From positions 158 through 64,157 of IMG/VR virus record IMGVR_UViG_3300046787_000138: DNA of 64,000 bases; one strand, written 5' to 3'. The stretch comes from a virus. Its lineage: Duplodnaviria > Caudoviricetes. The notes under the pieces are model-generated. The model saw only the letters and a list, made by a program, of their open reading frames with translations. It did no database searches and had not been told where the DNA came from. A program made the position numbers and the translations under genes. Of this stretch, positions 47,518 through 63,899 are shown piece by piece (position 1 is the stretch's first letter; the number at the start of each line of letters is the position of its first letter).

Positions 47518-47520
47518 TTT

Positions 47521-48949: not shown

Positions 48950-48982
48950 GAGGGCTAACATTGTTAGCCCCCGTGTTTTTAC

Positions 48983-49570
48983 TTAGACTTGGCCGCGCTC
49001 TTTCAAGATAGCCATACCTGCGTACACGATAGCGCCGAACACTTCTTGCTCAAACGCTTCGCCGTTGCGGGTGCTTGCGGCCTCTTCCAATTTCTTGGTG
49101 GCTTGGCCTGTTGCGAAACCACGACCGTGCATCTTGGTGTAGTGAGCCCAAGGCTGTTCCAAGAATGGAGTACGCGCACCGCCATGGCGTTCGCCTTTAC
49201 CGTGCATGGCTTGCTTGATAGCATCCACGAATACGGCATACAACGGGTGGTCTTCTACTCGGTCGGCTTGCGGCTCGATCATCGTAATGGCTTCTTGCAT
49301 ACGGGTACGGCCTTGGGTCATGTTGAAAGTCAAACGAGCTGTTTGTTCTTCGCTCAGTTTGGTGACGTCATCTTTCGCCATAGTCACGCCAAGGTGTGTA
49401 ACAACTTTCGGTGTCTTCGCGGCTTTGCCCTTGTCGCTGGCGCGGATAGCGTACACATACGCTGGGTTTGTCTTACACGCTTTGGCTACTTTCATAGCAC
49501 TAGCGTCAGGGTTCTTCGCTTGGTACGCACGGACTTGCTCTGCTTTGTTCACTTTTTTAGCTGTTGCCAT
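48983..49570 (-). CDS. Hypothetical protein (HTH-like N-terminus plus helical C-domain)
   Basis: GGAG RBS; AMKVAKAC..NPAYVY; GKGERH...GQATKK. Confidence 0.7.
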   Translation of the reverse strand: MATAKKVNKAEQVRAYQAKNPDASAMKVAKACKTNPAYVYAIRASDKGKAAKTPKVVTHLGVTMAKDDVTKLSEEQTARLTFNMTQGRTRMQEAITMIEPQADRVEDHPLYAVFVDAIKQAMHGKGERHGGARTPFLEQPWAHYTKMHGRGFATGQATKKLEEAASTRNGEAFEQEVFGAIVYAGMAILKERGQV

Positions 49571-49769
49571 TTTCAAATTCTCCAGTTTGGGTTTCTACAT
49601 AATTCACAAGAACTTCTCGGATTTTGGCTTGCTTGTTGGGAAAGGTCTCGAAGTACTCGACTACCTCTCGCGGCAAACGCAAGCTCGTATTAACAAGGGT
49701 CGGCTTCTTGCTGGGACCGCGACCTTGTCGTTTTTTCTCGGGTTTTAAATATTCAATTCCTGTTGTCAT
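49557..49769 (-). CDS. RHH-like DNA-binding protein (BrnA-antitoxin-like)
   Basis: GRGP..KP...TSLRLPREVVEYF...QAKIREVL. Confidence 0.6.
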   Translation of the reverse strand: MTTGIEYLKPEKKRQGRGPSKKPTLVNTSLRLPREVVEYFETFPNKQAKIREVLVNYVETQTGEFENGNS

Positions 49770-50011
49770 AACAGCGCTTCCTCTTCATCAGGGAAAAAAG
49801 TTGTGGTGTGGTTCTTTGGGAACAGCTTTGGATTGAGCCTTGCGAACGGCCACCAAGCGTTCAGCTCGGCCTGAGTCAATCGGCGTGATGGCTGCTCTGA
49901 CTTTGACGACAAAGCAGTCTTCTTTTCCTTGGGACTCAACCCATTCTTTGGCTTCCGTTTTGGTGCGGAACATGACGTAGCCGATGCCTTCGTCGTCTTT
50001 AGTTCTGACAT
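49766..50011 (-). CDS. Hypothetical protein (overlaps 49788-50063)
   Basis: ATGA-coupled to the downstream gene. Confidence 0.5.
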   Translation of the reverse strand: MSELKTTKASATSCSAPKRKPKNGLSPKEKKTALSSKSEQPSRRLTQAELNAWWPFARLNPKLFPKNHTTTFFPDEEEALL

Positions 50012-50063
50012 AGCTACCCCTAATTGTTCTAATCATGTACGCTGATACGTGTACGCTCTGCAT
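49788..50063 (-). CDS. Hypothetical protein (overlaps 49766-50011)
   Basis: TAATG-coupled to the upstream gene with AAGGAG RBS. Confidence 0.5.
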   Translation of the reverse strand: MQSVHVSAYMIRTIRGSYVRTKDDEGIGYVMFRTKTEAKEWVESQGKEDCFVVKVRAAITPIDSGRAERLVAVRKAQSKAVPKEPHHNFFP

Positions 50064-50536
50064 TACGTTTTCTCCTTGATAGGCCGCATCCGTTTGGCGC
50101 GGTACTCTTGGTCAACTATCCCCATAGCCAGCTCCATGTCGCGCACCGTTGTGTTCTGCAACTGCGTGTCGTGAATCTCCATGACTAGGTTCATAGCGTT
50201 AAGCTCGTCGGCCTTCAGTATGAAGCGCCCACTCTCGACACCACGCTTGCCCACAGCATGAAGCGCGTCCAAGCCAGCCTTGATTTCTTCTGACCAATCA
50301 CGGCCAAGCTCAGGGCGTAGCATGGTGTATGCCTCACACATATTGAACGCACCAATCAGTACGTCAATAGTCGCTATCGTTGCATCGCCTCGACGCAACA
50401 AGTCCATCGCGTCATGGTTCTTGATTCGCAAGTCGGCGCTAAGCGCAACGCTTGTAAACGGTTTCATGCCAGCTAGCACCCACGACACTGGGTCAGGGAA
50501 CACACCCTTGGGGCGGTACTTGGAACGCTTTCTCAT
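50063..50536 (-). CDS. Hypothetical phage protein (MRKRSKYRPK)
   Basis: 157-aa ORF in operon. Confidence 0.75.
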   Translation of the reverse strand: MRKRSKYRPKGVFPDPVSWVLAGMKPFTSVALSADLRIKNHDAMDLLRRGDATIATIDVLIGAFNMCEAYTMLRPELGRDWSEEIKAGLDALHAVGKRGVESGRFILKADELNAMNLVMEIHDTQLQNTTVRDMELAMGIVDQEYRAKRMRPIKEKT

Positions 50537-50826
50537 ACACCCATACCCCGCATCGTCATCACCACAGCAATCTGCTCGGCGAGTGGTAGGCCTTCTTCCA
50601 AGATGTAGTACTCGCTCTTCCAGTCAGGGCCATGGTTGTTTCGCTGGTACGACTGCACCTCTAACAGCTTACCGTTCATCACATCCATCACAGCCACGCG
50701 CACCTTGGGTCTCGGCTTGTCCACTGCTTCCTCGGGGCCGGATACCGAAGCGTAAATTTCTTTCTCACGCTGGTTCTTTACCGCAATCTCTTCTTTGAAT
50801 AGCCAATTCTTTAACCACTCTCTCAT
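50533..50826 (-). CDS. Hypothetical protein
   Basis: ATGA overlaps on both sides. Confidence 0.7.
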   Translation of the reverse strand: MREWLKNWLFKEEIAVKNQREKEIYASVSGPEEAVDKPRPKVRVAVMDVMNGKLLEVQSYQRNNHGPDWKSEYYILEEGLPLAEQIAVVMTMRGMGV

Positions 50827-50990
50827 TTCTTTTCTCCTTGTTCACGTTGGATTCGTTCAAACTCGTCGTCTTCTGCCTTGGCATCATCCTGCTTTTGCTT
50901 GGTTCCCCAAATCAAATCGTAGTTACTGCCGTATTTATTTTGGTCTGTTGGGCGTTGGGTATCGCCCTTACCTGCTTCTCTGTTACTCAT
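50823..50990 (-). CDS. Small hypothetical protein (55 aa, GKGD..RP.D..KY..NYD)
   Basis: Manually translated; fills the gap with ATGA overlaps. Confidence 0.65.
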   Translation of the reverse strand: MSNREAGKGDTQRPTDQNKYGSNYDLIWGTKQKQDDAKAEDDEFERIQREQGEKK

Positions 50991-51271
50991 TTCTTTCCTT
51001 TCACACTAACATTGTTAGCACCTGCGGCGCTGAAATAGTTGAAGTCTCTCGGCTTGAGCGCGAGTTCCTTTTTCTTCTGTAAGTCCAACCGTGCTTGCTC
51101 CTTGGAAATCTTTACGGATAGTGACTTAGTCACAGTCTTCAATGGCTTTCGGTTGACCTTCAGCTTTTTCTCCTCACGCACTTCACGGTTAGCCGCATGG
51201 GTGCGAAAGTCTTTCATCAGGTCAGGCATATACGTCTTCACGTAGTCGGGGTGGAACGCGTTCACGGTCAT
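50987..51271 (-). CDS. Hypothetical protein
   Basis: VNAFHPDY start; AAGGA RBS. Confidence 0.7.
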   Translation of the reverse strand: MTVNAFHPDYVKTYMPDLMKDFRTHAANREVREEKKLKVNRKPLKTVTKSLSVKISKEQARLDLQKKKELALKPRDFNYFSAAGANNVSVKGKK

Positions 51272-51374
51272 AGGAGGTCCTTAGAGATGAGTTTGTAAAA
51301 ACCAAACATGAATAGAACAACAATTACAAAAACGACGACACCCTCAAAGTGCGCGTGTAAAAAATCCCAAAACG

Positions 51375-51611
51375 TCATTGCATCGCCCTCAGTTGTGCGA
51401 ACAAGCCCCAAAACTTGGCGGTCTTCGGGTCTTCCTCACCTGCATCCAATGCGTTACACACGCTCTCGGCTTCCTCCACCAATGTCTTCATCACCTCGGC
51501 CACGTTCGCACCTTGCTCAAAGCCCATCTCGTAGGCATTGCCCATTGCCGTGATGGTGTTCTCATCACAGCCCACACTGCGTAGCAGCGTAGTCATATCG
51601 TCTTTTGTCAT
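51375..51611 (-). CDS. Hypothetical protein
   Basis: MTKDDMTTLLRSVG...AYEMG. Confidence 0.7.
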   Translation of the reverse strand: MTKDDMTTLLRSVGCDENTITAMGNAYEMGFEQGANVAEVMKTLVEEAESVCNALDAGEEDPKTAKFWGLFAQLRAMQ

Positions 51612-51743
51612 ATCAATCTTTCAAAAGCCATGTTTCTAAAAATTCGTTCACTGCTAGGTACACAAAGATGATGCCAATAAACATCACGATGCCCACACCC
51701 ATCAGCAAGCAAATCAACCCAATGTTTGCCAAGTCGGAGTCCA

Positions 51744-51950
51744 TCACACCTGCTCCTTACTTACGTCACTCACTCGGTAGAGCAACCCCCACCCAAACGT
51801 CACGGTGCAGATAAAGTAGAACATTCGGTCGTGTCGCTCCCACATGAACGGGTCGGTGTTCGCCCCCACGATTGCCATGAACGGGTACACCAACATTGCC
51901 GCTATCACGAAAGGCGTAGTGCACACCAATATTTCTTTCAGTACTTTCAT
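51744..51950 (-). CDS. Small membrane protein
   Basis: Two hydrophobic segments. Confidence 0.6.
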   Translation of the reverse strand: MKVLKEILVCTTPFVIAAMLVYPFMAIVGANTDPFMWERHDRMFYFICTVTFGWGLLYRVSDVSKEQV

Positions 51951-52129
51951 TTGAATTTCCTCACTAAGTTTTTGTCAGCCCACTCGTCAAACTTCTTGTC
52001 GGTATGGGCAATCTTGCTAGCATCCTTGGGTGGCGGTGGCTTGCGTGGTTTAGGCGCGGCCTTCACTACCTTCGGTTTCTCCACTGGCTTGTTAGGCCAC
52101 GGCGCGTTAGGTGCTAGTACTGTTTTCAC
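51947..52129 (-). CDS. Small basic Pro-rich protein
   Basis: GTG start with GAGGAG RBS; VLAPNAPWP. Confidence 0.55.
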   Translation of the reverse strand: MKTVLAPNAPWPNKPVEKPKVVKAAPKPRKPPPPKDASKIAHTDKKFDEWADKNLVRKFK

Positions 52130-52352
52130 TTTGCTCCTCGTGTTCTTTTTGTAGTCGGCGATATGCCGACACGTTGTTCTTGATAGCTCTCCAGTCACTA
52201 GCACTCTTGGTAATGAACTGGGGTTCAGGGAATTCGGCAAACGTAATCTTGAAGTGTGAGCCACTGCGGGTTTCCAAGGCAATCACATGGAACCCCGCCT
52301 TCTCGTATTCAAGTACCTGCTTGCGTAGGCACTGTGGAATTTTCATTTGCAT
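52107..52352 (-). CDS. HicA-like small protein
   Basis: EKAGF...RSGSHFK...SASDWRAIKN. Confidence 0.5.
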   Translation of the reverse strand: MQMKIPQCLRKQVLEYEKAGFHVIALETRSGSHFKITFAEFPEPQFITKSASDWRAIKNNVSAYRRLQKEHEEQSENSTST

Positions 52353-52461
52353 ATCTCCCCGTTCATCGCGCGTTCGTGCAACTTGTCCCACACATCGGGT
52401 TCACCAGCAAATAAGAAAGCCAACGCCAGTACGAATACGGCGAATACAACATCATCTACTT

Positions 52462-52659
52462 TCATACGACTATCTTTACCAGTATGCCAACGACTAACAA
52501 TGTTAGGGCGTAGAGTACGAAGTCATTCCACGTAGGTGCTGGGCGCTTGTGCCCCTCCCACCATTCACCTAGTCGGTCTTGGGGAAACGCATCATCCAAA
52601 CTGCGTGGGAAGCATCGGGTTGTAGGCCAACCCTCAAATTTAGGATTCGGTTTTTTCAT
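52462..52659 (-). CDS. Hypothetical protein with C-terminal TM
   Basis: PTTRCFPRSLDDAFP. Confidence 0.65.
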   Translation of the reverse strand: MKKPNPKFEGWPTTRCFPRSLDDAFPQDRLGEWWEGHKRPAPTWNDFVLYALTLLVVGILVKIVV

Positions 52660-53464
52660 CTTCAGCCTCCAAAACCAACACAAAAATTTCATCGTTAACT
52701 CGGCAACCTATACCAGTTACCATCGCTTCTTTCTCCACCAGCTTGAGCATACCTAGCTTGCCACGTAGCTCGACGGGTAGAGTCGCATCATCATACAGTT
52801 GTACATTGTCACGTATCTTAACAATATATTTACTGTCTGACAACACAATCAACGCAGTTCTTTGGTTCTGAAACGCCTTAGTAGTTTCCTCAATGGTCAC
52901 CATGTCGGCTTTGACATCGTTTAGCTTCTCCATGTGCTCTAGCACTACTACATTGTTTGTCTGCTTCAGCCACAGTACGTACTGAATAAAGTTGTCTTTA
53001 GCCCATCTATCCAAGCCAGCCTCAATCGGACGCTCATACTCACGCGCCCTAACACGGTTACGATGTGCTTGGTTACCCAATACATCCTCGGCCTTCTTCG
53101 CGGCATCGTGCATACGCTCGGTCAATGACATGACACCAAAGGTCTTCTTCACCTTGAGTACTGCCTTATCTACCTTGTCGGTGTGATATGCGTTCTTGCG
53201 TTCGCTCTGCATTGCGATTCGGTTGTTGCGTACAAACAACTTGTGGCTACTGCCATACCACTCCGAGCCGATGTAGCCCAGCGTCTCGGCACCATGCAGT
53301 ACACGATAAGAACGGAACCCCTCCACCTCGATAGTCCATAGTGGATTCTTGGTCGCTACTTCCCACGCCAATCGCTTGGCATCAATGTGTAACTCCTCCT
53401 CAGCCCTAATCTTTGTGTCCTTACCAAAACGCACGTTGGGCAACTTCAACAATTCAATAGCCAT
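52640..53464 (-). CDS. Hypothetical protein (274 aa)
   Basis: GAGGAG RBS; ends LGMLKLV...GIGCRV. Confidence 0.8.
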   Translation of the reverse strand: MAIELLKLPNVRFGKDTKIRAEEELHIDAKRLAWEVATKNPLWTIEVEGFRSYRVLHGAETLGYIGSEWYGSSHKLFVRNNRIAMQSERKNAYHTDKVDKAVLKVKKTFGVMSLTERMHDAAKKAEDVLGNQAHRNRVRAREYERPIEAGLDRWAKDNFIQYVLWLKQTNNVVVLEHMEKLNDVKADMVTIEETTKAFQNQRTALIVLSDSKYIVKIRDNVQLYDDATLPVELRGKLGMLKLVEKEAMVTGIGCRVNDEIFVLVLEAEDEKTES

Positions 53465-53468
53465 TTCT

Positions 53469-53627
53469 TCACTCCTCTTTCAATAAATCTAACCACATTT
53501 GCACTTCGTTGTGCTTCAGCCATTTCTTCAACACTTTGCCGTCTCTCCAACACCAAATATAGAAACGGTTTTTCTTCCCCCGTTCATGACGTAAGGCGAG
53601 GTAGTCTCCTGCTAGTTTCACCATCAT
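53469..53627 (-). CDS. Small hypothetical protein (52 aa, not in ORF track)
   Basis: AAGGAG RBS; MMVKLAGDYL...WLDLLKEE. Confidence 0.6.
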   Translation of the reverse strand: MMVKLAGDYLALRHERGKKNRFYIWCWRDGKVLKKWLKHNEVQMWLDLLKEE

Positions 53628-53634
53628 TCACTCC

Positions 53635-54489
53635 TTACCATTCAAACTTCTGCAAAATCGCATCGACCTTGTTCTTCATCGTTTCACGAACGTGAGAACT
53701 CTCTTTGATTGTTTCAATGTCAGCACCTAACATTGTTAGCTCTAACTGCTTACGAGCATCCTCCAGCTTGGGGTCGTTCGTAATGTTCATCTTGTCCAGC
53801 AAGCCGCACAAGTCCACAGCATTAGTCACGAGCGAGTCGTGGTAGCGCTTCTTAGACTCCTCGCCATCCTCGTCTTTCAACTTCTCAGACATGGCAGTAA
53901 GTACGGTGTGCAGTCGCTCCCAAGGTGTACGCATAGCCTCGGCCAGTCGCTCGTCGAACTTGGCTTCGTACTGTGCCTTCATCTCATCTAAGTCATGCGC
54001 TGATATGTCCAAGCGAAAGTCACCAGACTCAGGAATGGGGTCAATCGCCATACGGAAACCAAACTTCTCTCTAACATTTGTTAGGTCAGGGTAATCAGTA
54101 GCGCGATACATCGTGCCAAGGTGCGTCTGTGCCTCGCTCACCAACTGTGGATACGCAATAAAGAAGTTGTTGCACATCTGCTTGAACTGCGCCTCGTAGT
54201 TATTCATCGTCTGCTTGTACTCCATGAACAACTTAGTCGGCAACAGTCGCTGGCCCTTGTCAGCCCAAGGCATCGTGTGCTGATTGTGGTAGAGACGGAT
54301 TCGTGCGGCTAATTTTTCTATATCCTTCCTCAATGAGGTTCCCGCAAACAGATTCTTCCGCGTCTGTGACGCATCACGCACCGCTGACGCATTGGTGTTT
54401 ACTGTCTCGGTCATCTCTCGGTCAACCTTGTTGGCTGGCCACACACTTATGTTCAGTTCCACTAGAACCGCGCTTGATGCAATACTCAT
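53635..54489 (-). CDS. DUF3150-like protein
   Basis: AVLVELNISVW, TMPW.D.G.RLLP, DYP....R.KF, NITNDP.L; same arm as AAA and vWA genes. Confidence 0.6.
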   Translation of the reverse strand: MSIASSAVLVELNISVWPANKVDREMTETVNTNASAVRDASQTRKNLFAGTSLRKDIEKLAARIRLYHNQHTMPWADKGQRLLPTKLFMEYKQTMNNYEAQFKQMCNNFFIAYPQLVSEAQTHLGTMYRATDYPDLTNVREKFGFRMAIDPIPESGDFRLDISAHDLDEMKAQYEAKFDERLAEAMRTPWERLHTVLTAMSEKLKDEDGEESKKRYHDSLVTNAVDLCGLLDKMNITNDPKLEDARKQLELTMLGADIETIKESSHVRETMKNKVDAILQKFEW

Positions 54490-54716
54490 TTCACTTCTCC
54501 TTCGTTAGATAAAACCATCGCTTCTGTCATTTCAATATACCCGTGTGTTTTTTCAATCGTGTCGGCTATGTCCTTGTAGTACACCCAGTTCAATAGGCAG
54601 CTCCACGTACCATACTCATACACACCACCCAATTCAAAGTTTCTCATCGCCCCTTCCATATATGAGGCTTGGCTCATCCGTGCCCAGTAGTACCTGCTCA
54701 GTTCATTTAACGTCAT
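54486..54716 (-). CDS. Hypothetical protein
   Basis: In operon, overlaps neighbours. Confidence 0.6.
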   Translation of the reverse strand: MTLNELSRYYWARMSQASYMEGAMRNFELGGVYEYGTWSCLLNWVYYKDIADTIEKTHGYIEMTEAMVLSNEGEVK

Positions 54717-55170
54717 CGGCTTTCCCTTTCATATCTAACATCTTCAACTGTCGTGCAAGACTGCACACTTCCTCTTTCACCCACGCGAACGTGCGGTAGG
54801 TATCTCTCATGTGGTGGCTAATGTCCGTATCGGTGTACTGAAGCATCGTCGCCACCATCTTCGGGCTAAAGTCCCCTGCGTGTGAGCAGTCGAACCCAAC
54901 CACCCACTCATCCGTCTCTTTGTCTTTCTCCGAGTACGTCAGGCCACCATGCACCTCAATGCTCCTGTCGTTAAGCCAGTCGTAGTTAAACCCATACGCT
55001 GTGTGTCCTCTCGGTATAGCCACGTACCCGTTCAGGTGTCCGAGCGTAGGGTGTCGCCACACTGTGCACTTGTACCCTGTCAGTTCGTGTGTCCACTCCT
55101 CTATGTCGGGCTCTTTCTCCCAAGGTCTGTCGCTTATCAGCAACTTCATCTTCTGTTCTGCATCTAACAT
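54703..55170 (-). CDS. Phage protein with His/Cys motifs
   Basis: GHLNGYV, VHGGLTY, GFDCSH; start codon lies within a palindrome copy. Confidence 0.75.
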   Translation of the reverse strand: MLDAEQKMKLLISDRPWEKEPDIEEWTHELTGYKCTVWRHPTLGHLNGYVAIPRGHTAYGFNYDWLNDRSIEVHGGLTYSEKDKETDEWVVGFDCSHAGDFSPKMVATMLQYTDTDISHHMRDTYRTFAWVKEEVCSLARQLKMLDMKGKADDVK

Positions 55171-55172
55171 TG

Positions 55173-55412
55173 TTAGTCTCCATCCTTTGCGTTAGTCCAT
55201 AACATCTTTGCCATAGCCGTAGCTGTGTCTTCGTCGTTGTAGATACCCATTGGTTGCTTCTCTCCTTTCAATCCAATGGCGTACTTGTGCGAGTCCATGA
55301 CGAAGTCGCGTTGCCACTTCACCCAAAACCCAATATGGTTAAGTTGTAGGTCAATGTTTCTCCACTTCACCTCGTGCTCGTGTTCGTACTTCGGTAGTTG
55401 TTGTGCCGCCAT
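55173..55412 (-). CDS. Small early protein
   Basis: GGAGGAG RBS; TAATG coupling. Confidence 0.65.
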   Translation of the reverse strand: MAAQQLPKYEHEHEVKWRNIDLQLNHIGFWVKWQRDFVMDSHKYAIGLKGEKQPMGIYNDEDTATAMAKMLWTNAKDGD

Positions 55413-55636: not shown

Positions 55637-55637
55637 A

Positions 55638-55862: not shown

Positions 55863-55863
55863 A

Positions 55864-56106: not shown

Positions 56107-57329
56107 TAGTCCTCCAAGTAAATTGTTTTGCCGTGGTCAGATACCGCGCTTGTGTTGCCACCACTGATGACCCACATAGTCGGCGCTGTCCACTCGTCAC
56201 CCCAGTTCGGTACGTAGCCGTCGGTCAGCACGATGACTGCCTCGGGCTTGATGTTCTCGTCACGCAGGTACTTAGACACACAGCTTGGGTCAGTACCACC
56301 ACCGCCTCGTGGCTTGGTCGAGCTAACAATGTTAAATACCTCGCTACCTTCGTACTTCTCATGCCCAGCTACATGGCCGTCCCAGTACAGCAAGTCCACG
56401 ACCTCGGGGTTCACTTCCTCAGCGATTGACTTGACCTCGGACAAGAACTCGGCAAGCTCAGGCCCACCGATAGAACCCGATGTGTCGATAGCCACAACCA
56501 AGTGACCGACCTTCTCGCCAATCATGCTGGGCATATACATACCTGTGCTGAGGAATCGGCGGTTCACACGACGCCATGAGCTTGTGTCTTTCGCAGAACA
56601 CGTAGCCTTGACGAACTCGCGCAATACTTCACGCCAGTCAATCTTGGGTGCAAGTAAGTCTTCCAGCTCTCGGTCGAGCATCCCGCCGCCCTTGCCGATG
56701 TTCTTCTGATGTGCAATCAAGCCTTGGCGAATCGCTTGGTCAATCTCACGCGCCAGCTCTTGCTTCTCCTCATCGGACAAGCCTTCGGCACCTTCCCAAT
56801 CATGTTCGTCAAACCCGTCACCGCCACCACCCCCGCCCGAGCTGTCGTCATCCTTCTGCTCCTGCTTGAGAATGTCGTACACCTGTTTGGTGTTCATGCC
56901 ACGGAATCGTTCATCGACCAAGCCCATGAAGTCACCCTTCTTCGCCTTGGGGTGCCCTGTGTCTTCTGCGTAGCGCGGCATAGCGATGACTGACTCGTTC
57001 GGGTCTAAGTCCTTGAGCATCAAGTTAATCACGTAGTCCATGGCTTGGTTGGCCAACTGCGCGTTCTCGGTGTGCAACTTAGTCCACGTTGTAAGGTGGC
57101 GGTACATTTTGTGGCCAGCCTCGTGTGCGATGACAAATGCCAGTTCCCTGTCGCTCATCTTCTTAACGAAGGCGCGGCCATACATCTCGTCGCGCCCGTT
57201 GGTACACGCAGTCGGAATGTCGTCACGCACATGGGTCTTGCCCACCATCATCACACCTTGGAGTAGTGCGAACTTGGGGTTACGCATTACTGTGATTTTT
57301 GCTTTCTGGAGCTTTCTTTCTTCGAGCAT
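56106..57329 (-). CDS. Metallopeptidase-vWA protein (DUF2201-like)
   Basis: TACTNG, HEAGH (HExxH), AMDYVIN, MIDAS DTSGS, GGGGTD, LTDGY. Confidence 0.85.
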   Translation of the reverse strand: MLEERKLQKAKITVMRNPKFALLQGVMMVGKTHVRDDIPTACTNGRDEMYGRAFVKKMSDRELAFVIAHEAGHKMYRHLTTWTKLHTENAQLANQAMDYVINLMLKDLDPNESVIAMPRYAEDTGHPKAKKGDFMGLVDERFRGMNTKQVYDILKQEQKDDDSSGGGGGGDGFDEHDWEGAEGLSDEEKQELAREIDQAIRQGLIAHQKNIGKGGGMLDRELEDLLAPKIDWREVLREFVKATCSAKDTSSWRRVNRRFLSTGMYMPSMIGEKVGHLVVAIDTSGSIGGPELAEFLSEVKSIAEEVNPEVVDLLYWDGHVAGHEKYEGSEVFNIVSSTKPRGGGGTDPSCVSKYLRDENIKPEAVIVLTDGYVPNWGDEWTAPTMWVISGGNTSAVSDHGKTIYLED

Positions 57330-57370
57330 TTCATTTCTCCTGTTGGTTGCCTAACATTGTTAGGGCTTGG

Positions 57371-57736
57371 TTAAAAATCTGAATCAATATTTCTAGACAC
57401 ACGCAACTGATAGTCGGCATGGTCTGAATGGGTTTCTTCCACGTCGTCACTATCCTCACCAACACGCACGAACTCGTACGCCCATTGGATTTCCTCCTGC
57501 TCTGCTAACTCTAGGTAGTTAGACACGAACCTGTTGAACGCCTTTACTTCAGGCCAGTCGGGGTACCACTTCACATCGTTGTCCTCGAACATGAACCCCA
57601 TGTAGTACCCGTTGTCTATTGGCCGCAAACAACCCGCCAAATCCTCGGGAAAGTTTTCTGTCACGTACAGCTTCAGTGCTGGCGCTCTATCCTCGGTGGT
57701 GTAGAACACCGCCTTTATGTCACTTCGATAGCCCAT
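57371..57736 (-). CDS. Hypothetical phage protein
   Basis: MGYRSD...VKWY...FVRVGED. Confidence 0.75.
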   Translation of the reverse strand: MGYRSDIKAVFYTTEDRAPALKLYVTENFPEDLAGCLRPIDNGYYMGFMFEDNDVKWYPDWPEVKAFNRFVSNYLELAEQEEIQWAYEFVRVGEDSDDVEETHSDHADYQLRVSRNIDSDF

Positions 57737-57953
57737 CGTCTTCCTCCTCGATTGAATTCAATAACTTACAAATTGCCTCGGCCTTGTCAATCGTCTCGTA
57801 TGTACCCATACTGATGTTGTCGAACTTGCGCCTGTCGCACACCTCCCATGCAGTCAGTAGCAAGCCCCCCTTACCGTCATGCTCAGTTACCCACCTAGTG
57901 AAGTACCGATGCAGGTACCCCTTCTTGTTTGTCGCTGAGTTCATGGCGCCCAA
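57720..57953 (-). CDS. Small early protein
   Basis: In operon. Confidence 0.6.
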   Translation of the reverse strand: MGAMNSATNKKGYLHRYFTRWVTEHDGKGGLLLTAWEVCDRRKFDNISMGTYETIDKAEAICKLLNSIEEEDDGLSK

Positions 57954-58267
57954 CCCATGTTCACCACTCGTATCTTCGCCTTGTACTCAGGCTCGGCCTC
58001 GCTAATCAACATGAGTAACGCCGCCTTCATTTGGTCAGGGTCGCTAGTCTCAAGCAATATCTCACGCTTCCTGTCGTCCTTCTCCGATACCCATCGAATC
58101 AATGTGCATCGGTACTGTGGGTACTCACCGCTGTTAAACATTCGAGCCTCAAACGTAACTTGGTAGTTAAACACCATTCTGTGTAGGTACTGAAACATAT
58201 CCCGAACCTCATCCCACTCGGCAGATATGTCATCCCACCGCCTCTTGTCTACTTGTGCATATAACAT
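57941..58267 (-). CDS. Hypothetical early protein
   Basis: Start codon lies within palindrome copy 58261-58273. Confidence 0.65.
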   Translation of the reverse strand: MLYAQVDKRRWDDISAEWDEVRDMFQYLHRMVFNYQVTFEARMFNSGEYPQYRCTLIRWVSEKDDRKREILLETSDPDQMKAALLMLISEAEPEYKAKIRVVNMGWAP

Positions 58268-58269
58268 TG

Positions 58270-58473
58270 TTAGTCCTCAAGTATGAGTTTCAGGTAGTTG
58301 TCCACTAGCTCCACGTCCTCGGATTCAAACGACACCTTGTTGTCGTGATAGATAATCACAGCATCGTTGAACACTCCGACGTGGTAGCCCAGCTTGTTGA
58401 GACGGGGGTTAGATTCTTTGCTCACGATTAACCACCCGTCATCTCTCCAAATGTGCTTACCTTTTTGTATCAC
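58270..58473 (-). CDS. Small early protein
   Basis: GTGA overlap with AAA gene; stop within palindrome. Confidence 0.6.
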   Translation of the reverse strand: MIQKGKHIWRDDGWLIVSKESNPRLNKLGYHVGVFNDAVIIYHDNKVSFESEDVELVDNYLKLILED

Positions 58474-59540
58474 AATAAATCTTGGTTTTTTGCAACCCAG
58501 TCGGCGAACGCCTTTGCGCCGAACGCGATGGACTGCTTGCTTGGTGTCTTAGCAATGTTGATAGCGAACACGGCTTGCCACTCGGCATCGAAGCGTTCCA
58601 AGTACTCCATGAATGGGGCGATGTTGGTCTTGTCGATACGAGCGATTGCACCGAAGATAACGATGGCACACGCGCCGGGACTTGTCGGTACTTTCGTATG
58701 CTTAGGGTCTTTGATGGTGTCTTCCCATGATGGGAGTTGGTCAGAGAACTCAATGTATGCCTGCATATCACGAGCCGCCGCTTCACCGATAGCACCACTG
58801 AGCGCCGCGATAACCGAGTCAGAGTCATTCTGCTTGCGGGTACTAACAATGTTAGATGCCGTTGCCAGTGAACGAGGAGACACGAACGCAACCTGTGGCT
58901 TCTTGGGGTTGAAGATGTACGGGTTGTCGCCTTGCCCTGCGTCGGTATAGCTAGCCATAGCGTGAGGGAATCGGTTGACCCATGCCAACACCTCGGGTGC
59001 GATGTTGTTGTTCATACCCCAATCAATCCATTCCTCAGATGTTGGCTTGGCAATAGTCACGGGCACGATACGGTTCATGCTGTGCGCCTTGATGCTGTCG
59101 CCCACACCGTCAGTAGACAAGTTACCTGTCAGGAAACAGATTGTGTCCTTGGGCAATGGGATGTCACCGAGTCGTGGGTTTGCCTTCTCAAGCATGGGGT
59201 GGAGCATATTCTTCACGGGGTCGGCGCCTTTGCTGAACTCGTCGAGCATGATGACCATTGGCTTGCCTGTATGAATACCGAACCGAGCGTTGGGGTAGTA
59301 GCGGGTCGTCTTCGTATCGTGGTCAATCACGGGCATCGCAATGTCACCCAAGTCCATGTTCGGCACGTCAATGTAGGCGTAGTCGTAGCCTAGTGGTGCG
59401 GCGATTGCTTCTAGCAGAGAACTCTTACCAATTCCTGGCTCGCCACGTAGCATGAAGCGTGTGGTTGGGTTGGTGCGAATCAGGTTCGCGGCTTGCTTCA
59501 ATGTGATGGTCTTACCAAATTTAACTTCTGACATTTTCAT
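58470..59540 (-). CDS. MoxR-like AAA+ ATPase
   Basis: Walker A GEPGIGKS, Walker B MLDE, TGN sensor, NR finger, SPRS. Confidence 0.88.
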   Translation of the reverse strand: MKMSEVKFGKTITLKQAANLIRTNPTTRFMLRGEPGIGKSSLLEAIAAPLGYDYAYIDVPNMDLGDIAMPVIDHDTKTTRYYPNARFGIHTGKPMVIMLDEFSKGADPVKNMLHPMLEKANPRLGDIPLPKDTICFLTGNLSTDGVGDSIKAHSMNRIVPVTIAKPTSEEWIDWGMNNNIAPEVLAWVNRFPHAMASYTDAGQGDNPYIFNPKKPQVAFVSPRSLATASNIVSTRKQNDSDSVIAALSGAIGEAAARDMQAYIEFSDQLPSWEDTIKDPKHTKVPTSPGACAIVIFGAIARIDKTNIAPFMEYLERFDAEWQAVFAINIAKTPSKQSIAFGAKAFADWVAKNQDLL

Positions 59541-59620
59541 TTCCTTCGTTTGTTTTCTAACATTTGTTAGAGGGTTTCACTTGCTTCAACTTACGGGCGG
59601 TATTTATCCACCAAGACTTA

Positions 59621-59649
59621 ATTGTACCACAAAAACTAGACTTTGTCAA
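59621..59649 (-). promoter_or_regulatory. Near-consensus sigma70 promoter
   Basis: TTGACA-17 bp-TACAAT with TGn. Confidence 0.85.
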
Positions 59650-59698
59650 GTTTCTAGGCGTGTTCATGGGCGTAGTTCCCACTGGCTTCTAACATTTG

Positions 59699-59887
59699 TT
59701 AGAGCCCATGCTTCTTTTTAAACGCATCGAACTGCGAGAAGATTCCCTCTCGCTCCTCGGGGTGCATGAACAACACCTTGAGCATCATGCCCAAGCCATC
59801 CTTCTCTGCCTTCCACTTAAAGGCTAGCACCGTAGCACCCACAGCCCATCCAAGCAGGAAACACTCTGCGTCACTCAATCCAAACAT
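59699..59887 (-). CDS. Small membrane-anchored protein
   Basis: Hydrophobic N-terminus; stop within palindrome. Confidence 0.6.
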   Translation of the reverse strand: MFGLSDAECFLLGWAVGATVLAFKWKAEKDGLGMMLKVLFMHPEEREGIFSQFDAFKKKHGL

Positions 59888-60069
59888 ATCAATTCCCCCT
59901 TACCTTTCTAACTTCAATACAACGTGCATCATCTATACGCCTAGCACCAAGCAAAATACTCTGAATCCGAACGCACTCCTCTTTGGTCGCTATGTTGTCG
60001 ATAACGGCTGGCCCTCCGTTGTGGCTACTCCCCGCCATATAAAACACCAATACCCATACATACTGCATA

Positions 60070-61092
60070 TCAATCCTCCTCAGTCATTACATAGTCGGCA
60101 TACTTGTGTGTCGGCACTTTGCCCTCGGGCAACTCCACTCGCTTGTATACCTTGTCGCTGAACATGGTGAACAGAATCTTGTCCAACACCTTCTCGAATT
60201 GGTCTGTGCCCAGCGTTACCTGTGACTCCATGTTGTCGCGCCAATACAAGCTCTGCTCCTGCACCACCAGAATGTTGTAGGCAATCCAATAGTTTTGGTG
60301 GCGTGCGTTGTCATCTTGGTCATTCCGTACTAGGTCGAAGAACTCAGCGGTTGCCTGTCGGTAGTTCGCCCACGCCTCTGCTTTGTCCTCGGCTCGGTAG
60401 TACTTGGGCTTGTGGCTAATCTTCCACTTGTCCACATCGGGTCGGCATCCGTTATTTACGTCCTGCACTTTGCCGAATACCTCAATCAATTCCCCATACG
60501 TTGTTTTGACTAGGTCGAATCGGCGCTCGTAGTGTGTGCCTTCGTTTACCACTCGCTCCTCAGCCTTGAGTTTGATGACACCCGCCAAGTAATCACGGAA
60601 ATTGCTCACCGTTTTCCTGACGTCATTCGCTCCCTTACGGCTAACACGATAGTCACAGAGGACTTGCTTCTCCTTGGGAATCCACCCGCCGCTTGTGTTT
60701 CGCACCAAGACCAGTTCCCCCTGCGCTGGCATCATCGCCTTCGCATCTGTGCCCGAGAAGCCCAGCACCACCTGACCCTTGACTCGGTACGCACCCACGC
60801 CGCCCAGCACTCGGCTAATGAACTGACACGTTGACGCGCTCGGCCAGTTGTCTATGCGGATGATGACCTCATCCTCTGTCGTGAACTTAACCACGGGCGT
60901 TTGGTACAACACACACTCGATTGCGTCTGTCCATACGTTCTTACGGATAGAGTATGTGTCCACATCACGGCGCTCACCTAGTGGTCGCTTGTCCACATCC
61001 CTGCCCTTGATGGGCTTGCTGTTGTTCCATCGCTTCAGCGCCTCGGCGTAGTTGTTTACCTTCGGCACTCTCATTACTGTTGCGTATCCCAT
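60070..61092 (-). CDS. Hypothetical early protein (340 aa)
   Basis: GGAGG RBS; RPLGERR, LYQTPVV. Confidence 0.8.
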   Translation of the reverse strand: MGYATVMRVPKVNNYAEALKRWNNSKPIKGRDVDKRPLGERRDVDTYSIRKNVWTDAIECVLYQTPVVKFTTEDEVIIRIDNWPSASTCQFISRVLGGVGAYRVKGQVVLGFSGTDAKAMMPAQGELVLVRNTSGGWIPKEKQVLCDYRVSRKGANDVRKTVSNFRDYLAGVIKLKAEERVVNEGTHYERRFDLVKTTYGELIEVFGKVQDVNNGCRPDVDKWKISHKPKYYRAEDKAEAWANYRQATAEFFDLVRNDQDDNARHQNYWIAYNILVVQEQSLYWRDNMESQVTLGTDQFEKVLDKILFTMFSDKVYKRVELPEGKVPTHKYADYVMTEED

Positions 61093-61166
61093 AACTCACC
61101 TCCAAAAATAAAAAACAACGGCGTACAAAATTGCAACCGCCCCAATTACTGCAAAACCATCATCCA

Positions 61167-61361
61167 TCACACACTCTCCAATGCAACTGTTGCTCGGTCA
61201 CGTAACTGCATCATCAGCCCTTGTGGGTTGCGCCCTAGCTTCTCTGCTAGTTGGTATATTGCATTACGCTTGGCGTTGTTGATGCTTGTGGTCGTGGTGT
61301 AGAACGTCAGGATTTCCCCTGCGTTGTTGACTGTCACTTTGAACTTGTGTTTTTCTAACAT
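61167..61361 (-). CDS. Small early protein
   Basis: Start codon in palindrome 61355-61367. Confidence 0.6.
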   Translation of the reverse strand: MLEKHKFKVTVNNAGEILTFYTTTTSINNAKRNAIYQLAEKLGRNPQGLMMQLRDRATVALESV

Positions 61362-61363
61362 TG

Positions 61364-61588
61364 TTAGGTCTCTCTCATTAAGTTAATCATCTTCTGTGCT
61401 ACCTCATACGTCAGCCCACGTTGCAACACCACGGCGGTGCCTACTCCGTCACGCTGTACCCGTTCGTCCCACTCGGCTTCCTCCATCGCATAGTGCTCGT
61501 TGGGTATGCGCTTGTGGTAGCTGTAAACCGACCCTTGATAGACCAGCCACTTCCCCTGTTTGTCAATCGTCTGTCTCGGCATCTTCAC
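61364..61588 (-). CDS. Small early protein
   Basis: GGAGG RBS, GTG start; stop in palindrome. Confidence 0.6.
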   Translation of the reverse strand: MKMPRQTIDKQGKWLVYQGSVYSYHKRIPNEHYAMEEAEWDERVQRDGVGTAVVLQRGLTYEVAQKMINLMRET

Positions 61589-61743
61589 GCCTCCTCAATG
61601 TTTGTTACGTTTGACTCAGCAAGCCCGTAGTCGTCGGGTTGCCACTTCTGCCATGCCAATACCTGCGCTTGCTCATCGTTGTCGGCTTCCACCTCCACGA
61701 TGGTTGTCTCCACTCGCTCAATCGTTACTCGATACGTCTTCAT
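61585..61743 (-). CDS. Small protein (MKTYRVTI...EVEADN..QA, DpnD/PcfM-like pattern)
   Basis: ATGA overlap; beta-beta-alpha pattern. Confidence 0.6.
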   Translation of the reverse strand: MKTYRVTIERVETTIVEVEADNDEQAQVLAWQKWQPDDYGLAESNVTNIEEA

Positions 61744-61934
61744 ACCTTGCTCCCTCGCACGAACGACCTCAGCTTCACCATGTGTATCGTGGCTTGGGCA
61801 TACCTGCGGCACAAGTCGGCGTAGTCGGCATCCTCCATCTCGTTGGCTGTCACCCGCTTGAACGCCTCGGTCATCTCCCTGTACGCCGCCTCCATGTTGA
61901 GGTACTCGGTTACTTGCTCTGCGTTAAATTTCAT
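61740..61934 (-). CDS. Small early protein
   Basis: GAGGGG RBS, ATG 61934. Confidence 0.6.
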   Translation of the reverse strand: MKFNAEQVTEYLNMEAAYREMTEAFKRVTANEMEDADYADLCRRYAQATIHMVKLRSFVRGSKV

Positions 61935-61938
61935 GGTT

Positions 61939-62169
61939 TTATCCCCTCTGTTGCTTTTGGTTAGTGTTGAGTAGTGTTGCCCGTGCTGACGTAGGTGTAA
62001 CGTATTGATAGTTACCTTTGCCGTATTCCATAACAACACACCACGATGCACGTTCCTCTCGGGCTAGTGCCTCGCCGCATCCCTTACATACTCGGTAGCC
62101 CAGTGCCCAGCGCTCGATGTGAACGTCATCACCGCACGACTCGCAGTCTCTCCATTCGGTTTCTAACAT
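61939..62169 (-). CDS. C4 zinc-finger protein (DksA/TraR-type finger spacing)
   Basis: CESCG...ER....Y..CKGC; AAGGAG RBS. Confidence 0.65.
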   Translation of the reverse strand: MLETEWRDCESCGDDVHIERWALGYRVCKGCGEALAREERASWCVVMEYGKGNYQYVTPTSARATLLNTNQKQQRG

Positions 62170-62187
62170 TTGTTACTCCTTTGCGTC

Positions 62188-62397
62188 TTAATACTCTTGA
62201 CCTAATGCTTCCATGTACTGCTCAAGCACGTTGGTGCACTCGAAGTAGTCGCTGTCTCGGCACAACTGCTCGGCATCGTGGTCTTGCACGAAGAACGACT
62301 GCCCTGTTTTTTGGCAGGTGATGTTGTACGCCCACCCATTGCCGAGGGACTCGACGTGGTATCGGTTGTCTGGTGTTACGAAAGAAATGGCAATCAT
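62188..62397 (-). CDS. Small early protein
   Basis: GAGGAG RBS; SLGNGWAY. Confidence 0.65.
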   Translation of the reverse strand: MIAISFVTPDNRYHVESLGNGWAYNITCQKTGQSFFVQDHDAEQLCRDSDYFECTNVLEQYMEALGQEY

Positions 62398-62512
62398 TCT
62401 TCTTCTCCTCAATAAATTTCACTAATCCAAGCCAAGAAAATCAGCATACAAGTGCCAGTCGATGCGTTGTCGCCCAGTGAGTTGAGCCACGCAAAGAAAA
62501 TAATCCATGCAG

Positions 62513-62689
62513 TCATTCGTCTTCTCCTTCTACGTAGTTGAGGGTTTCCGTCAGGGTGTGGCCGAGCAGTAAGCCGCCGAACACAAGGGCGAAGTTGCCC
62601 ATTGGTGCGTCATAGCCCCATGCCAAGAAGATGATTGCCGCAGATATGAAGGTCTGTGCGATTGTTAGTAGTGCAGTTGTCGGTGTCAT
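62513..62689 (-). CDS. Small membrane protein
   Basis: AAGGA RBS; two hydrophobic segments. Confidence 0.6.
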   Translation of the reverse strand: MTPTTALLTIAQTFISAAIIFLAWGYDAPMGNFALVFGGLLLGHTLTETLNYVEGEDE

Positions 62690-62769
62690 TTTGTATTCCT
62701 TTGTTGTGCCTAACATTGTTAGGTCGGTTGGTTTGTCTGAGGTACTTTGTTTTTTGTTCCTCAGCCTAT

Positions 62770-62798
62770 ATTGTATCACATTGTTATATGTAAGTCAA
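62770..62798 (-). promoter_or_regulatory. Sigma70 promoter heading early operon
   Basis: TTGACT-17 bp-TACAAT with TGn. Confidence 0.85.
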
Positions 62799-62825
62799 GG
62801 GCTTTACTCTACCCACAGAGCAAAG

Positions 62826-62849
62826 AAAAAGGGAGCCGTTGGGCTCCCT
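62826..62849 (-). terminator. Terminator after RHH gene
   Basis: AGGGAGCC-loop-GGCTCCCT then T-tract on - strand. Confidence 0.8.
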
Positions 62850-62853
62850 ATGT

Positions 62854-63300
62854 TTAGTTATCTAACCCTCCATCAGCGTTCCATTTCTTGTTGGGTCTAC
62901 GCTTGTACTCATAGTCTCGCCAACCATCAAGCGCGGCAACGGGGTCGCCTGTTCCACTATCCTTTGTGTATTCGTAAATAGCTCTACGGATGATTGACGC
63001 AACGGATTGGCACTGCTCCTCTGCATGGGCTTGGAGCGCGGCGCGTACTTCTTTGTCGGGGATGCGGATAGATATGCTCACCCCTCGGGTTAGTTCCCGT
63101 CGGTGTTGCGCAACTGCATGGGCCGACACGTTGCACGTTGGCTCGGTAATCGGGTTCTTCATAAACGCTACAACTGCGGCGTAGGCAACGGCGGCGCGTG
63201 AACTATTTGTGGCCTCGGCGTGCATTTGCATTTGAGCCAGCGTTGCGGGTGTTGTGGTCAAGGTGTGCATATCGGACAGATAGGCTTTGCGGTTTGTCAT
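62854..63300 (-). CDS. Ribbon-helix-helix (CopG/Arc-like) DNA-binding protein
   Basis: VSISIRIPDKEVRAALQAHAEEQCQSVASIIRRAI; ATG 63300 with AAGGG RBS. Confidence 0.7.
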   Translation of the reverse strand: MTNRKAYLSDMHTLTTTPATLAQMQMHAEATNSSRAAVAYAAVVAFMKNPITEPTCNVSAHAVAQHRRELTRGVSISIRIPDKEVRAALQAHAEEQCQSVASIIRRAIYEYTKDSGTGDPVAALDGWRDYEYKRRPNKKWNADGGLDN

Positions 63301-63445
63301 AGAATACCCTTTGTAAAATAACATACAAGAGTATATCACAAGGTGGCCTAACAATGTTAGGGTCTGTTACGAAATGTATGTTCGCCATGTTACGGCGGGA
63401 AACCAAACGTAACACGAAAACGTAACGCGGAAACCCAATAGAATC

Positions 63446-63615
63446 GCGGTGTTCCGTTGTATGTATTAGAAGTTATAGAATTTAAGAAAGAGAGAGAGCC
63501 GGGTTTAAAAGCTGTGTGGTACGAATTGCGCTTGCTGAGAAGGTCTTTGTCTCAGGTTTGCCCACACTCAATTTTGAAAAAGGCGTAACTTCCGATACAT
63601 ACAACGGAAACCCGC
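63446..63615. repeat. Imperfect 31-bp inverted repeat in non-coding region
   Basis: 63446-63476 vs 63585-63615, 26/31 complementary incl. 15-bp perfect core TTCCGTTGTATGTAT. Confidence 0.85.
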
Positions 63616-63705
63616 ATAAACCTTAGATTGTTACGTTACGTTTGTCTTTTTCGGAAACGTAACACGTTCACAAAGGCCGTAACATTGTTAGGTCGCGACT
63701 CCCTT

Positions 63706-63781
63706 TCGGAGAACTGGTATTGCATTGTTACGTTTCACCCCACCGACTCGTTCGCGGCTACCCCTCGGAGAACTGGTATTG
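63706..63781. repeat. 17-bp direct repeat TCGGAGAACTGGTATTG
   Basis: 63706-63722 and 63765-63781. Confidence 0.9.
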
Positions 63782-63845
63782 AAGAAGGAGGACAAACGTA
63801 ACAAAGCCCTAACAATGTTAGGGCTCGCAGAGAAAGTACAGACGC

Positions 63846-63871
63846 AAAAAAGCCCCCGATTTCTCGGGGGC
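63846..63871 (-). terminator. Rho-independent terminator
   Basis: GCCCCCGA-GAAA-TCGGGGGC-TTTTTT on - strand. Confidence 0.9.
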
Positions 63872-63899
63872 CAAGGCTAACAATGTTAGCCTAGGGTAA

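Follow-up and report, generated by a model that had tools for sequence, protein, structure and literature searches.

A dispersed palindrome array in the early arm of an uncultured freshwater phage co-diverges with the first early protein

We analysed a 64,000-nt stretch (the window) of the genome of an uncultured freshwater phage of ~64 kb, bases 158-64157 of the 64157-base IMG/VR record IMGVR_UViG_3300046787_000138, in which a short palindrome, CTAACA-N1/2-TGTTAG, is scattered through the early genes. The ends of the record repeat, and one copy of the motif is found in it twice, at positions 4-16 and 64034-64046; these offsets imply a circle of 64,030 bases, so that the window falls short of the circle by 30 bases. 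Late genes, among them those for terminase, portal, capsid and a 2001-aa protein, occupy the plus strand at ~998-37560, and the early and replication genes run on the minus strand from ~63300 down to 37783. The first early gene, gA, encodes a protein of 171 aa. The nearest cultured phages, the Rhizobium RHph_TM3_14A group and Pseudomonas KPP25/phiR18, share only ~36% DNA polymerase identity with this phage, and a megablast of the early arm against a phage collection gave no match; IMG/VR holds hundreds of relatives with 69-88% DNA polymerase identity. Common to all early arms compared are gA, g5, a 340-aa protein (g10), an AAA ATPase, a VWA protein and proteins of 284, 274, 70, 197 and 146 aa. 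The genes for the MoxR-like AAA ATPase (58470-59534, minus strand) and the VWA/metallopeptidase-like protein (56106-57329, minus strand), followed by those for the conserved 284- and 274-aa proteins, form the early-arm core in all relatives. g5 (61939-62169, minus strand) encodes a 76-aa CxxC...CxxC zinc-ribbon protein and has its ATG within a palindrome copy; among the small early proteins this one is best conserved (35/36 loci; 52-74% identity), and its tree is unrelated to motif class.

The array is a real and strongly selected feature of the early arm. A first-pass annotation of this DNA had listed 15 exact 13-mers and three exact 14-mers; all are present at the coordinates it gave, the 13-mer occurs in none of 100 dinucleotide shuffles and the 14-mer is likewise absent from shuffles. 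The four one-mismatch variants it reported (56323, 58261, 62163, 63679) are real as well, but a fifth, CTAACTTTGTTAG on the plus strand at 47391, had been overlooked, so that the window holds 23 copies rather than 22: 15 exact 13-mers, three exact 14-mers and five with one mismatch. By spacer, 19 have one central base (N1) and four have two (N2). At up to two mismatches, the 13-mer has 20 matches against 0.94 expected, and a full scan at this tolerance still finds no motif between 540 and 37600, as had been claimed; the late arm does not have a similar density. Half-sites behave in the same manner: CTAACA occurs 21 times and TGTTAG 19 times in 48950-64000, compared with 5 and 0 times in the 37 kb of late genes. 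Nearly every early-arm half-site is part of a palindrome and isolated half-sites are not enriched, suggesting that the two half-sites are read together and that the unit is the pair. The description of the array as tiling the early arm about every kilobase did not survive: from 48955 round the circle to 526, the 21 copies are separated by 20 gaps of 68 to 2051 bases (median ~680), and with tight clusters at 63679/63809/63877, 404/526 and 59557/59689 there is no regular tiling.

The position of each copy was derived from a minus-strand open reading frame (ORF) map with ribosome-site inspection, plus promoter and terminator scans (Table 1). On the coding strand the motif reads C-TAA-CA-ATG-TTAG; since the word holds both TAA and ATG, it fits a compact gene junction at zero space cost. 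Most copies lie outside promoters. Those at 404, 51006, 57351, 59557 and 62710 end 15-22 nt short of the following ATG and directly 5' of the ribosome site, and three (404, 62710, 59557) lie 31-53 nt downstream of predicted sigma70-like promoters. Well inside genes are the copies at 58843, 56323, 54071, 53727 and 47391; the ORF map reproduced the six copies that had been placed within coding sequences, together with their frames. An automatic classing of 202 sites used open-frame lengths, not gene calls, and is rough only.

Table 1. Palindrome copies, associated control elements and replication genes of the window
Feature	Position	Strand	Context
Palindrome copy	526..538		Outermost copy; ~42 bp upstream of gA promoter -35; outside any predicted early transcript; position kept in relatives
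gA promoter, sigma70-like	454..483	-	TTGCTA-N18-TATACT with TG
Palindrome copy	404..416		gA 5' untranslated region (UTR), ~+31..+43 from predicted transcription start, 18 nt before ATG at 385
gA, 5' part	1..385	-	Runs off window start; 30 nt missing from window; whole gene read as L001:30-542:-
gA, 3' end with TAA stop	63900..64000	-	
Palindrome copy	63877..63889		Between gA stop and gA terminator
gA intrinsic terminator	63851..63872	-	9-bp stem, T run
Palindrome copy	63809..63821		Just beyond gA terminator; symmetry extended to 10 pairs
Palindrome copy	63679..63691		One mismatch; non-coding stretch past gA terminator
Palindrome copy	63348..63360		At expected -35 position of extended -10 promoter (TGaTATACT) of the ribbon-helix-helix (RHH) gene
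RHH-domain gene g1	62854..63300	-	148 aa; accessory
Palindrome copy	62710..62722		5' UTR, ~+41..+53 from promoter 62770-62798; 20 nt before ATG at 62689
Palindrome copy	62163..62176		One-mismatch 14-mer; includes g5 ATG, directly after AAGGAG; start only
Palindrome copy	61355..61367		Gives TAA stop of gene 61582-61364 and ATG of gene 61361-61167
Palindrome copy	59689..59702		14-mer; gives TAA stop of gene 59887-59699 (stop only); upstream of promoter 59621-59649
Palindrome copy	59557..59570		14-mer; AAA ATPase 5' UTR, 22 nt before its ATG
Palindrome copy	58843..58855		Inside ATPase gene (ASNIVS)
Palindrome copy	58261..58273		One mismatch; gives TAA stop and following ATG
Palindrome copy	57351..57363		Between stop codon and ribosome-binding site of VWA/metallopeptidase-like gene
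Palindrome copy	56323..56335		One mismatch; inside VWA gene (FNIVS)
Palindrome copy	55164..55176		Gives TAA stop and following ATG; ribosome-binding site GGAGA just upstream
Palindrome copy	54071..54084		14-mer inside 284-aa gene (LTNVR)
Palindrome copy	53727..53739		13-mer inside 284-aa gene (LTML)
Palindrome copy	52494..52506		Last 14 codons of small ORF, ahead of following start
Palindrome copy	51006..51018		Last 10 codons of 94-aa ORF; 15 nt before following ATG
Palindrome copy	48955..48967		5 bp upstream of TTGACA of promoter 48922-48949; symmetry extended to 8 pairs
Palindrome copy	47391..47403		Inside 162-aa gene; centre AAA on - strand
Palindrome copy	37601..37613		Last copy; ~17 nt before terminator ending minus-strand arm
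DNA polymerase	45215-47032	-	
Helicase	42525-43922	-	
Primase	37783-40635	-	

The same early-arm layout recurs in related phages, with arms and spacers private to each lineage. A palindrome of the CTAACA type is the commonest one in most of 80 polymerase-centred loci, and a repeated palindrome is present in 42 of 43 loci centred on g5, where the copies begin only ~1.5-3 kb upstream of this gene; the remaining locus, L095, yielded none in that scan but carries a different palindrome, TCTTA-N6-TAAGA. Across 72 non-redundant loci we counted 184 exact sites, whose spacer is one base in 62, two in 109 and three in 13, and in the complete relative G001 (65.3 kb) all 13 exact copies fall within 12.6 kb. 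Each genome favours one spacer: N1 in G004 (14/14) and G005 (16/16), N2 in G003 (9/9) and G001 (13/17, the other four being N1), and N3 in G002 (14/14) and L081 (6/6). The arms change as well, to CTGACA (L069, L105, L114, L134), CTAAGA (L031) or ATAACA (L078, L080, L059), and more divergent words are CCGACA-N3 (L120), CTGAC-N6 (L132) and CTTCATAC-N-GTATGAAG (L133, 14 copies), so that spacers of 1, 2, 3 or 6 bases are found across lineages. Since both arms have changed together and uniformly within a genome, a lineage-specific reader is called for. No comparable palindrome array was found in the first 50 kb of KPP25 (L094), which include its early arm, nor was there an array within 10 kb of the polymerase gene in distant relatives on contigs of metagenome-assembled genomes (47-65% polymerase identity). 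KPP25 carries AATTTCGTAACA five times, as well as a long run of a 7-base tandem repeat (GCCAGCC).

Comparison with relatives bears out the earlier suggestion that selection acts on DNA rather than protein, in that copies inside genes are kept by codon choice. All six genomes compared encode ASNIV(R/S) in the AAA ATPase; four of them use motif-forming codons and two use others. At the 14-mer of the 284-aa gene (54071), three spacer-2 genomes keep both arms around a varying central codon (AAT, TCT, GAT), and three other compared genomes have no motif there. The 13-mer in the same gene (53727, ELTMLG) is present in 10 of 10 loci whose copies elsewhere have a one-base spacer and in none of 20 loci in which the spacer is two or three bases long or the arms differ; four of these 20 encode the identical peptide ELTMLGAD by other codons. 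A synonymous-site test of the 284-aa gene in nine spacer-1 loci agrees: three degenerate codons within the motif are invariant in 9/9 and their neighbours vary, a single codon being used in only 18% of the conserved degenerate codon columns of this gene. Note that the loci in these codon comparisons are related to each other, and the counts are not independent events.

Copies of the motif flank gA. Among 28 relatives, 21 have the outermost copy of their array 92-169 nt upstream of the gA ORF, a second copy is often found 6-48 nt upstream of gA or on its start codon, and in 25 of the 28 a copy lies within 110 nt of the gA stop codon (in 24 of these, 11-106 nt after it). An alignment of 21 relatives shows a conserved promoter, TTGCAT-N17-TGnTATAAT, between the outermost copy and gA; in the aligned upstream regions it falls between the first two copies. 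A conserved TTATTGTTTACG block lies between the upstream palindrome and the -35 of this promoter. In L096-L131 an inverted repeat, ATGCAAAC...GTTTGCAT, is kept ~60-100 nt upstream of gA, directly after the predicted transcription start, and the window has ATGAAAAGGG...CCCTATTCAT at the same place (417-447); the repeat may be a 5' stabilising hairpin or a second operator.

Spacer and arm class co-diverge with gA, unlike with neighbouring genes. With 27 gA proteins in the tree, three changes of spacer label are needed, against a minimum of two, and none of 200 shuffles is as low. The tree separates an N1(+N3) clade (clade I) from an N2(+TGACA, +CTTA-N6) clade (clade II) by a branch with 100% support and ~3 substitutions per column; in a tree of 31 rows the N3 genome joins the N1 clade, and the CTGACA and TCTTA-N6 genomes fall in the N2 clade, all on long branches. 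In contrast, g5 from the same genomes needs nine label changes, like shuffles, and on matched genome sets gA needs two changes compared with four for the ATPase, five for g10 and four for the VWA protein. All of 26 families around g5 lie above the minimum, the nearest being a sub-clade of gA itself. Among 49 families with at least 12 loci around the polymerase, none meets the minimum with more than 12 loci; a family of 72-aa ORFs opposite to the early-gene strand meets it with 12. The three genomes with the most divergent words (L120, L132, L133) have a first early gene of similar size that shares a short G-x-P/S...W-x-R/K motif.

The association reaches far beyond gA itself. Copies that lie over 300 nt past g5, at 2-7 kb from gA, mostly have the spacer of the gA clade: N1 for 83 of 84 in clade I, and N2 for 58 of 72 in clade II, where the exceptions are 10 N1 and four N3 copies. 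Five of these N1 copies come from a single IMG/VR locus, L117, which has a clade-II gA and gA-proximal copies of the matching N2/N3 type; by its sequence, L117 may be a recent recombinant of the two classes, caught before site conversion. In a rival explanation the palindrome is mainly a recombination word, that is a short homology or a nuclease or recombinase site at cassette junctions that serves early-gene swapping among related phages, for which the PeSL of T4-type phages and the attC sites of integrons offer parallels. Such a role would suit the copies at gene junctions, the resemblance of L117 to a two-class recombinant and the mosaic nature of the early arm, in which the g5, g10, VWA and ATPase trees disagree with each other's class labels. 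It leaves unexplained the copies kept by codon choice inside conserved genes, the copies that bracket promoters and the spacer shared by all copies of a genome, which tracks one gene 2-10 kb away; furthermore, a domain search of the genome found no integrase or resolvase. We therefore regard a recombination word as very improbable.

gA is predicted to be all-helical (predicted local distance difference test score, pLDDT, 78), and a stretch at about residues 77-90 is invariant (GYSNPSNAWKMVKQY); we count 156 homologues of gA. A homodimer model reached an ipSAE interface score of 0.63 compared with 0.00 for the best control, with three runs sharing at least 90% of contacts and a pLDDT of at least 78; in the calibration of this score, 20 of 30 solved homodimers and one of 23 proteins solved as single chains reached the mark.

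Other candidate readers fare worse than gA. The RHH protein g1, the XRE-like helix-turn-helix (HTH) protein of small size encoded at 40695-40934 or a host protein could each read the sites. A palindrome copy (63348) lies on the g1 promoter and g1 scores just above the Pfam RHH_1 cut-off (21.1 versus 20.5 bits), and the small protein has a weak HTH_3 match at window 40719-40844 (19 bits, below the cut-off of 23). However, g1 has no homologue in five related array-bearing genomes or in a scan of viral contigs, and G001 has no gene at its place; not being conserved among array-bearing relatives, g1 was rejected as a general reader. The HTH family (WIN_16167_16406) needs six label changes against a minimum of three, with 41 of 200 shuffles as low, and a host factor would leave the phage-private arms and spacers unexplained among phages that share ~75% DNA polymerase identity. 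A reader other than gA thus seems quite improbable, if slightly less so than the recombination word. g1 is equipped with an extended -10 promoter and a terminator (62830-62849) of its own; given its absence from relatives, it looks like an accessory insert (moron) under the control of the array.

The layout of the copies is the anatomy of a dispersed operator or 'stoperator' network. We consider it somewhat probable, and our preferred explanation, that the palindromes are DNA operators for a phage-made, two-fold symmetric regulator, probably gA, and that they act like stoperators; that gA binds, that it acts on DNA and not on RNA, and that it represses and does not activate are what we infer here, as are the order of events and the sign of regulation in the scheme that follows. 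Host RNA polymerase would start at the strong sigma70-like early promoters, and gA, which has a promoter of its own in front, a terminator of its own behind and three copies of the motif around it, would be made first and bind these three copies as a dimer for autoregulation. The dimer would recognise double-stranded CTAACAATGTTAG, with a preference for its own spacer class, and would also occupy ~20 further copies at promoters, at stop/start junctions and inside long early genes, where it would block or tune transcription of the whole early block, as stoperators do. Each lineage has its own half-site spacer (1, 2, 3 or 6 bases) and arms, and these co-evolve with gA.

Several observations weigh against gA as a DNA-binding reader. 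Firstly, spacers are mixed within one genome (19 N1 and four N2 in the window, 13 N2 and four N1 in G001), which a rigid dimer should not tolerate, and L117 combines its clade-II gA with distal N1 copies. Secondly, covariation is functional linkage, not binding, and the replication-gene trees also partly cluster the spacer classes (primase, four changes versus a minimum of three, n=16; DNA polymerase, six versus three, n=28). Thirdly, gA has no recognisable DNA-binding domain and a pI (isoelectric point) of ~6: Pfam and PHROGs searches came back empty, Foldseek against the PDB gave nothing at E <= 0.001, a profile search against PDB sequences gave nothing, and the best hit of a wide VIA-align search (Z 7.1) is an unrelated helical protein. 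In the ESM Atlas the nearest named cluster is DUF3102 at 0.83, a lead only and not a specific family assignment. The gA-like genes of L120, L132 and L133 are not detected by the gA hidden Markov model and were recognised by position and the short motif only. Finally, the centres of the sites are A-rich on the sense strand (110 A-only versus 58 T-only among the 184 exact sites of the 72 loci), as expected if the ATG or RNA matters, and in two loci, L062 and L056, nearly every small gene starts in the motif, which fits a translation-level role as naturally as a DNA-level one.

These last points bear on an RNA-level operator, in which the copies would be small mRNA hairpins with a 5-bp stem and an A-rich loop of 3-5 nt, bound by a phage protein, possibly gA, so as to repress or couple the translation of early genes, in the manner of T4 RegA and Mu Com, or to load an antitermination factor, as lambda N is loaded at boxB. 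Many copies hold a start codon or end 15-22 nt before one; in L062 and L056 the sense strand of 13 of 15 and of 11 of 15 copies, respectively, has AAATG, at the starts of one small gene after another, and the A bias of the centres is much stronger there. Mixed loop sizes would be easier for a hairpin than for a rigid DNA-binding dimer, and the three copies at +31..+53 of promoters and two just before terminators are suitably placed. On the other hand, a conserved copy (526) lies upstream of the gA promoter, two (63809 and 63679) past the strong gA terminator and one (63348) on a -35, all in DNA that is probably not transcribed; other copies sit inside long genes away from start sites, and a third have the opposite centre orientation. 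Conservation extends to the inner A and T of CTAACA/TGTTAG, which are unable to pair in a loop of 1 or 2 nt. Folding of the bare RNA hairpin yields only -1.1 to -2.7 kcal/mol, and complementarity of the flanks is barely above expectation at +/-1 (77 versus 59.5 expected) and absent at +/-2 and +/-3; in a test for extended stems and G-U pairs there was no sense-strand G-U excess and no signal beyond +/-1, and no copy in the window matches an Rfam family. Set against boxB-type antitermination, in which a stable stem-loop is read just after early promoters, three copies have a suitable position at +31..+53, the hairpin is weak, the copies number ~20 and some lie outside transcripts. Taken together, we consider a purely RNA-level operator rather unlikely, and a dual role in DNA and RNA is possible.

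The first-pass annotation had contrasted ordinary operators with a region-marking array in the sense of parS or matS, which it preferred. In such an array the copies would be loading or bridging points for a protein that compacts, protects, segregates or pulls in the early DNA, without acting primarily on gene expression. Part of this proposal stands: the array is selected, specific to one region and acts at the level of nucleic acid, also within genes, most likely with a dedicated reader. The copies are limited to one arm with some density held even inside genes, the words are 13-bp palindromes, as is matS, and a region mark also needs a dimeric reader, so that the gA evidence fits it equally well. 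What speaks for operators instead is that copies are tied to promoters, 5' UTRs and stop and start codons rather than freely placed: they bracket strong sigma70-like promoters, one covers a -35, many are at stop/start junctions, and the motif co-diverges with one early protein. Furthermore, spacing is irregular and no ParB_N domain was found in the genome (the control was detected in 11 of 14 genomes; no search for MatP was made). Region marking is, in our estimation, about as improbable as the recombination word.

A broader proposal goes further, and we offer it tentatively, considering it rather unlikely. gA could be the founder of a new, fold-unassigned family of dimeric nucleic-acid readers, with spacer length serving as a switchable 'specificity type' for the whole 15-kb early arm of an apparently virulent phage. 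Since a one-base slip in the A/T centre would convert the type of a site, related phages in one cell could silence each other's early genes or escape such silencing, forming immunity-like incompatibility groups without lysogeny. The word might have two readings, one in DNA at promoters and one in RNA at the start codons within it.

Of the systems with which the array can be compared, the C1 operators of phage P1 and the inverted repeats of Streptomyces phage phiC31 resemble it in having many sites through the early genes; both are temperate phages in which one repressor of a known family serves many scattered operators. The four motif strings did not occur in the literature searched. The nearest described system is that of the stoperators of Cluster A mycobacteriophages. 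Cluster A genomes carry 20-30 short operator or stoperator sites of 13-14 bp for an L5 gp71-type repressor, only some of them in promoters and most between genes or at gene ends, where they block elongation; a site also lies upstream of the repressor gene itself, and site motif and repressor co-diverge (PMC6550527, PMC9283540). The phage array is similar in its tens of 13-14 bp sites (23 here), most of them beyond promoters, and in the co-divergence of motif class and candidate reader among relatives. Cluster A sites, however, lack symmetry, point in the direction of transcription and occur on both arms, and their reader is a monomeric HTH repressor of temperate phages (PMC6550527, PMC9283540). 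Here the sites are perfect palindromes in which only the centre is biased, they are restricted to the early arm (also in G001), no integrase was found, the candidate reader has no known fold and lineages differ by spacer length. A search for an HTH repressor gave the sub-threshold HTH_3 match, which does not track motif class, as its sole signal and no Pfam match for gA; homology to gp71 was not searched. The array is therefore not a member of the asymmetric, oriented, genome-wide and HTH-read Cluster A family, though it probably works like it.

In form, the closest known system is the 17-bp dyad repeat of Cluster O mycobacteriophages, TGTTCGG-NNN-CCGAACA, present in 34 copies in Corndog and described with function and reader unknown (PMC4351075). 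Both repeats are perfect palindromes with invariant arms and a short variable A/T-rich centre, in tens of copies that are intergenic or near the 5' ends of genes. The Cluster O repeat has different 7-bp arms and is found genome-wide, whereas the word here is confined to the early arm, and the passages of PMC4351075 consulted here report no spacer classes, candidate reader or use as stop and start codons. The start-associated sequences (SAS, and the related ESAS) of Cluster K are words of 13 bp that occur in the non-structural arm only and are closely tied to start codons, sometimes with the upstream stop inside; they are asymmetric, hold a Shine-Dalgarno core and lie 3-7 bp before the start, and whether protein or RNA reads them was left open (PMC3203893). 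They share with our array the restriction to one arm and the start-codon link. The palindrome, in contrast, lacks a Shine-Dalgarno core, has the ATG inside the word or 15-22 nt after it, and also occurs at promoters and inside genes.

Dispersed operator arrays have been described in a few clusters of actinobacteriophages, for the most part temperate ones, and the same logic appears here in a large clade of uncultured freshwater phages without an integrase. The clade adds three features: the word also provides stop and start codons for compact early genes, lineages are set apart by the spacing of the half-sites and not by sequence alone, with in-gene copies re-coded to match, and covariation singles out a testable reader, the 171-aa first early protein without a known family. 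If gA binds the sites, it would represent a new DNA-binding family with a simple, programmable pairing of site spacing and protein type, and would explain how such phages switch off the whole early block. Should gA fail to bind, the array nonetheless remains strongly selected, with its reader open.

Some further features of the window deserve mention. The ~500 bp between gA and the next promoter (63362-63830) are non-coding; GTTACG/CGTAAC words recur there, four palindrome copies lie in or close to this stretch, and it may serve as an origin of replication or as a second control element. A tRNA-Asn (GTT) gene at 763-838 on the plus strand lies in the divergent control region upstream of the late operon and is directly preceded by a plus-strand sigma70-like promoter, TTGACC-N18-TATAGT, at ~721-750; this tRNA was the sole match in an Rfam scan of the window. 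Three adjoining genes of 116-162 aa on the minus strand (47029-48272) are mutual weak paralogues (phmmer E 1e-5 to 5e-4) with no family match. The last late gene (31555-37560, plus strand) encodes the 2001-aa protein, which in its C-terminal part matches PHROG giant-virion-protein families, one of them labelled DarB-like antirestriction, and has a Pfam LPD39 match at 1115-1219; it is probably an ejected internal protein.

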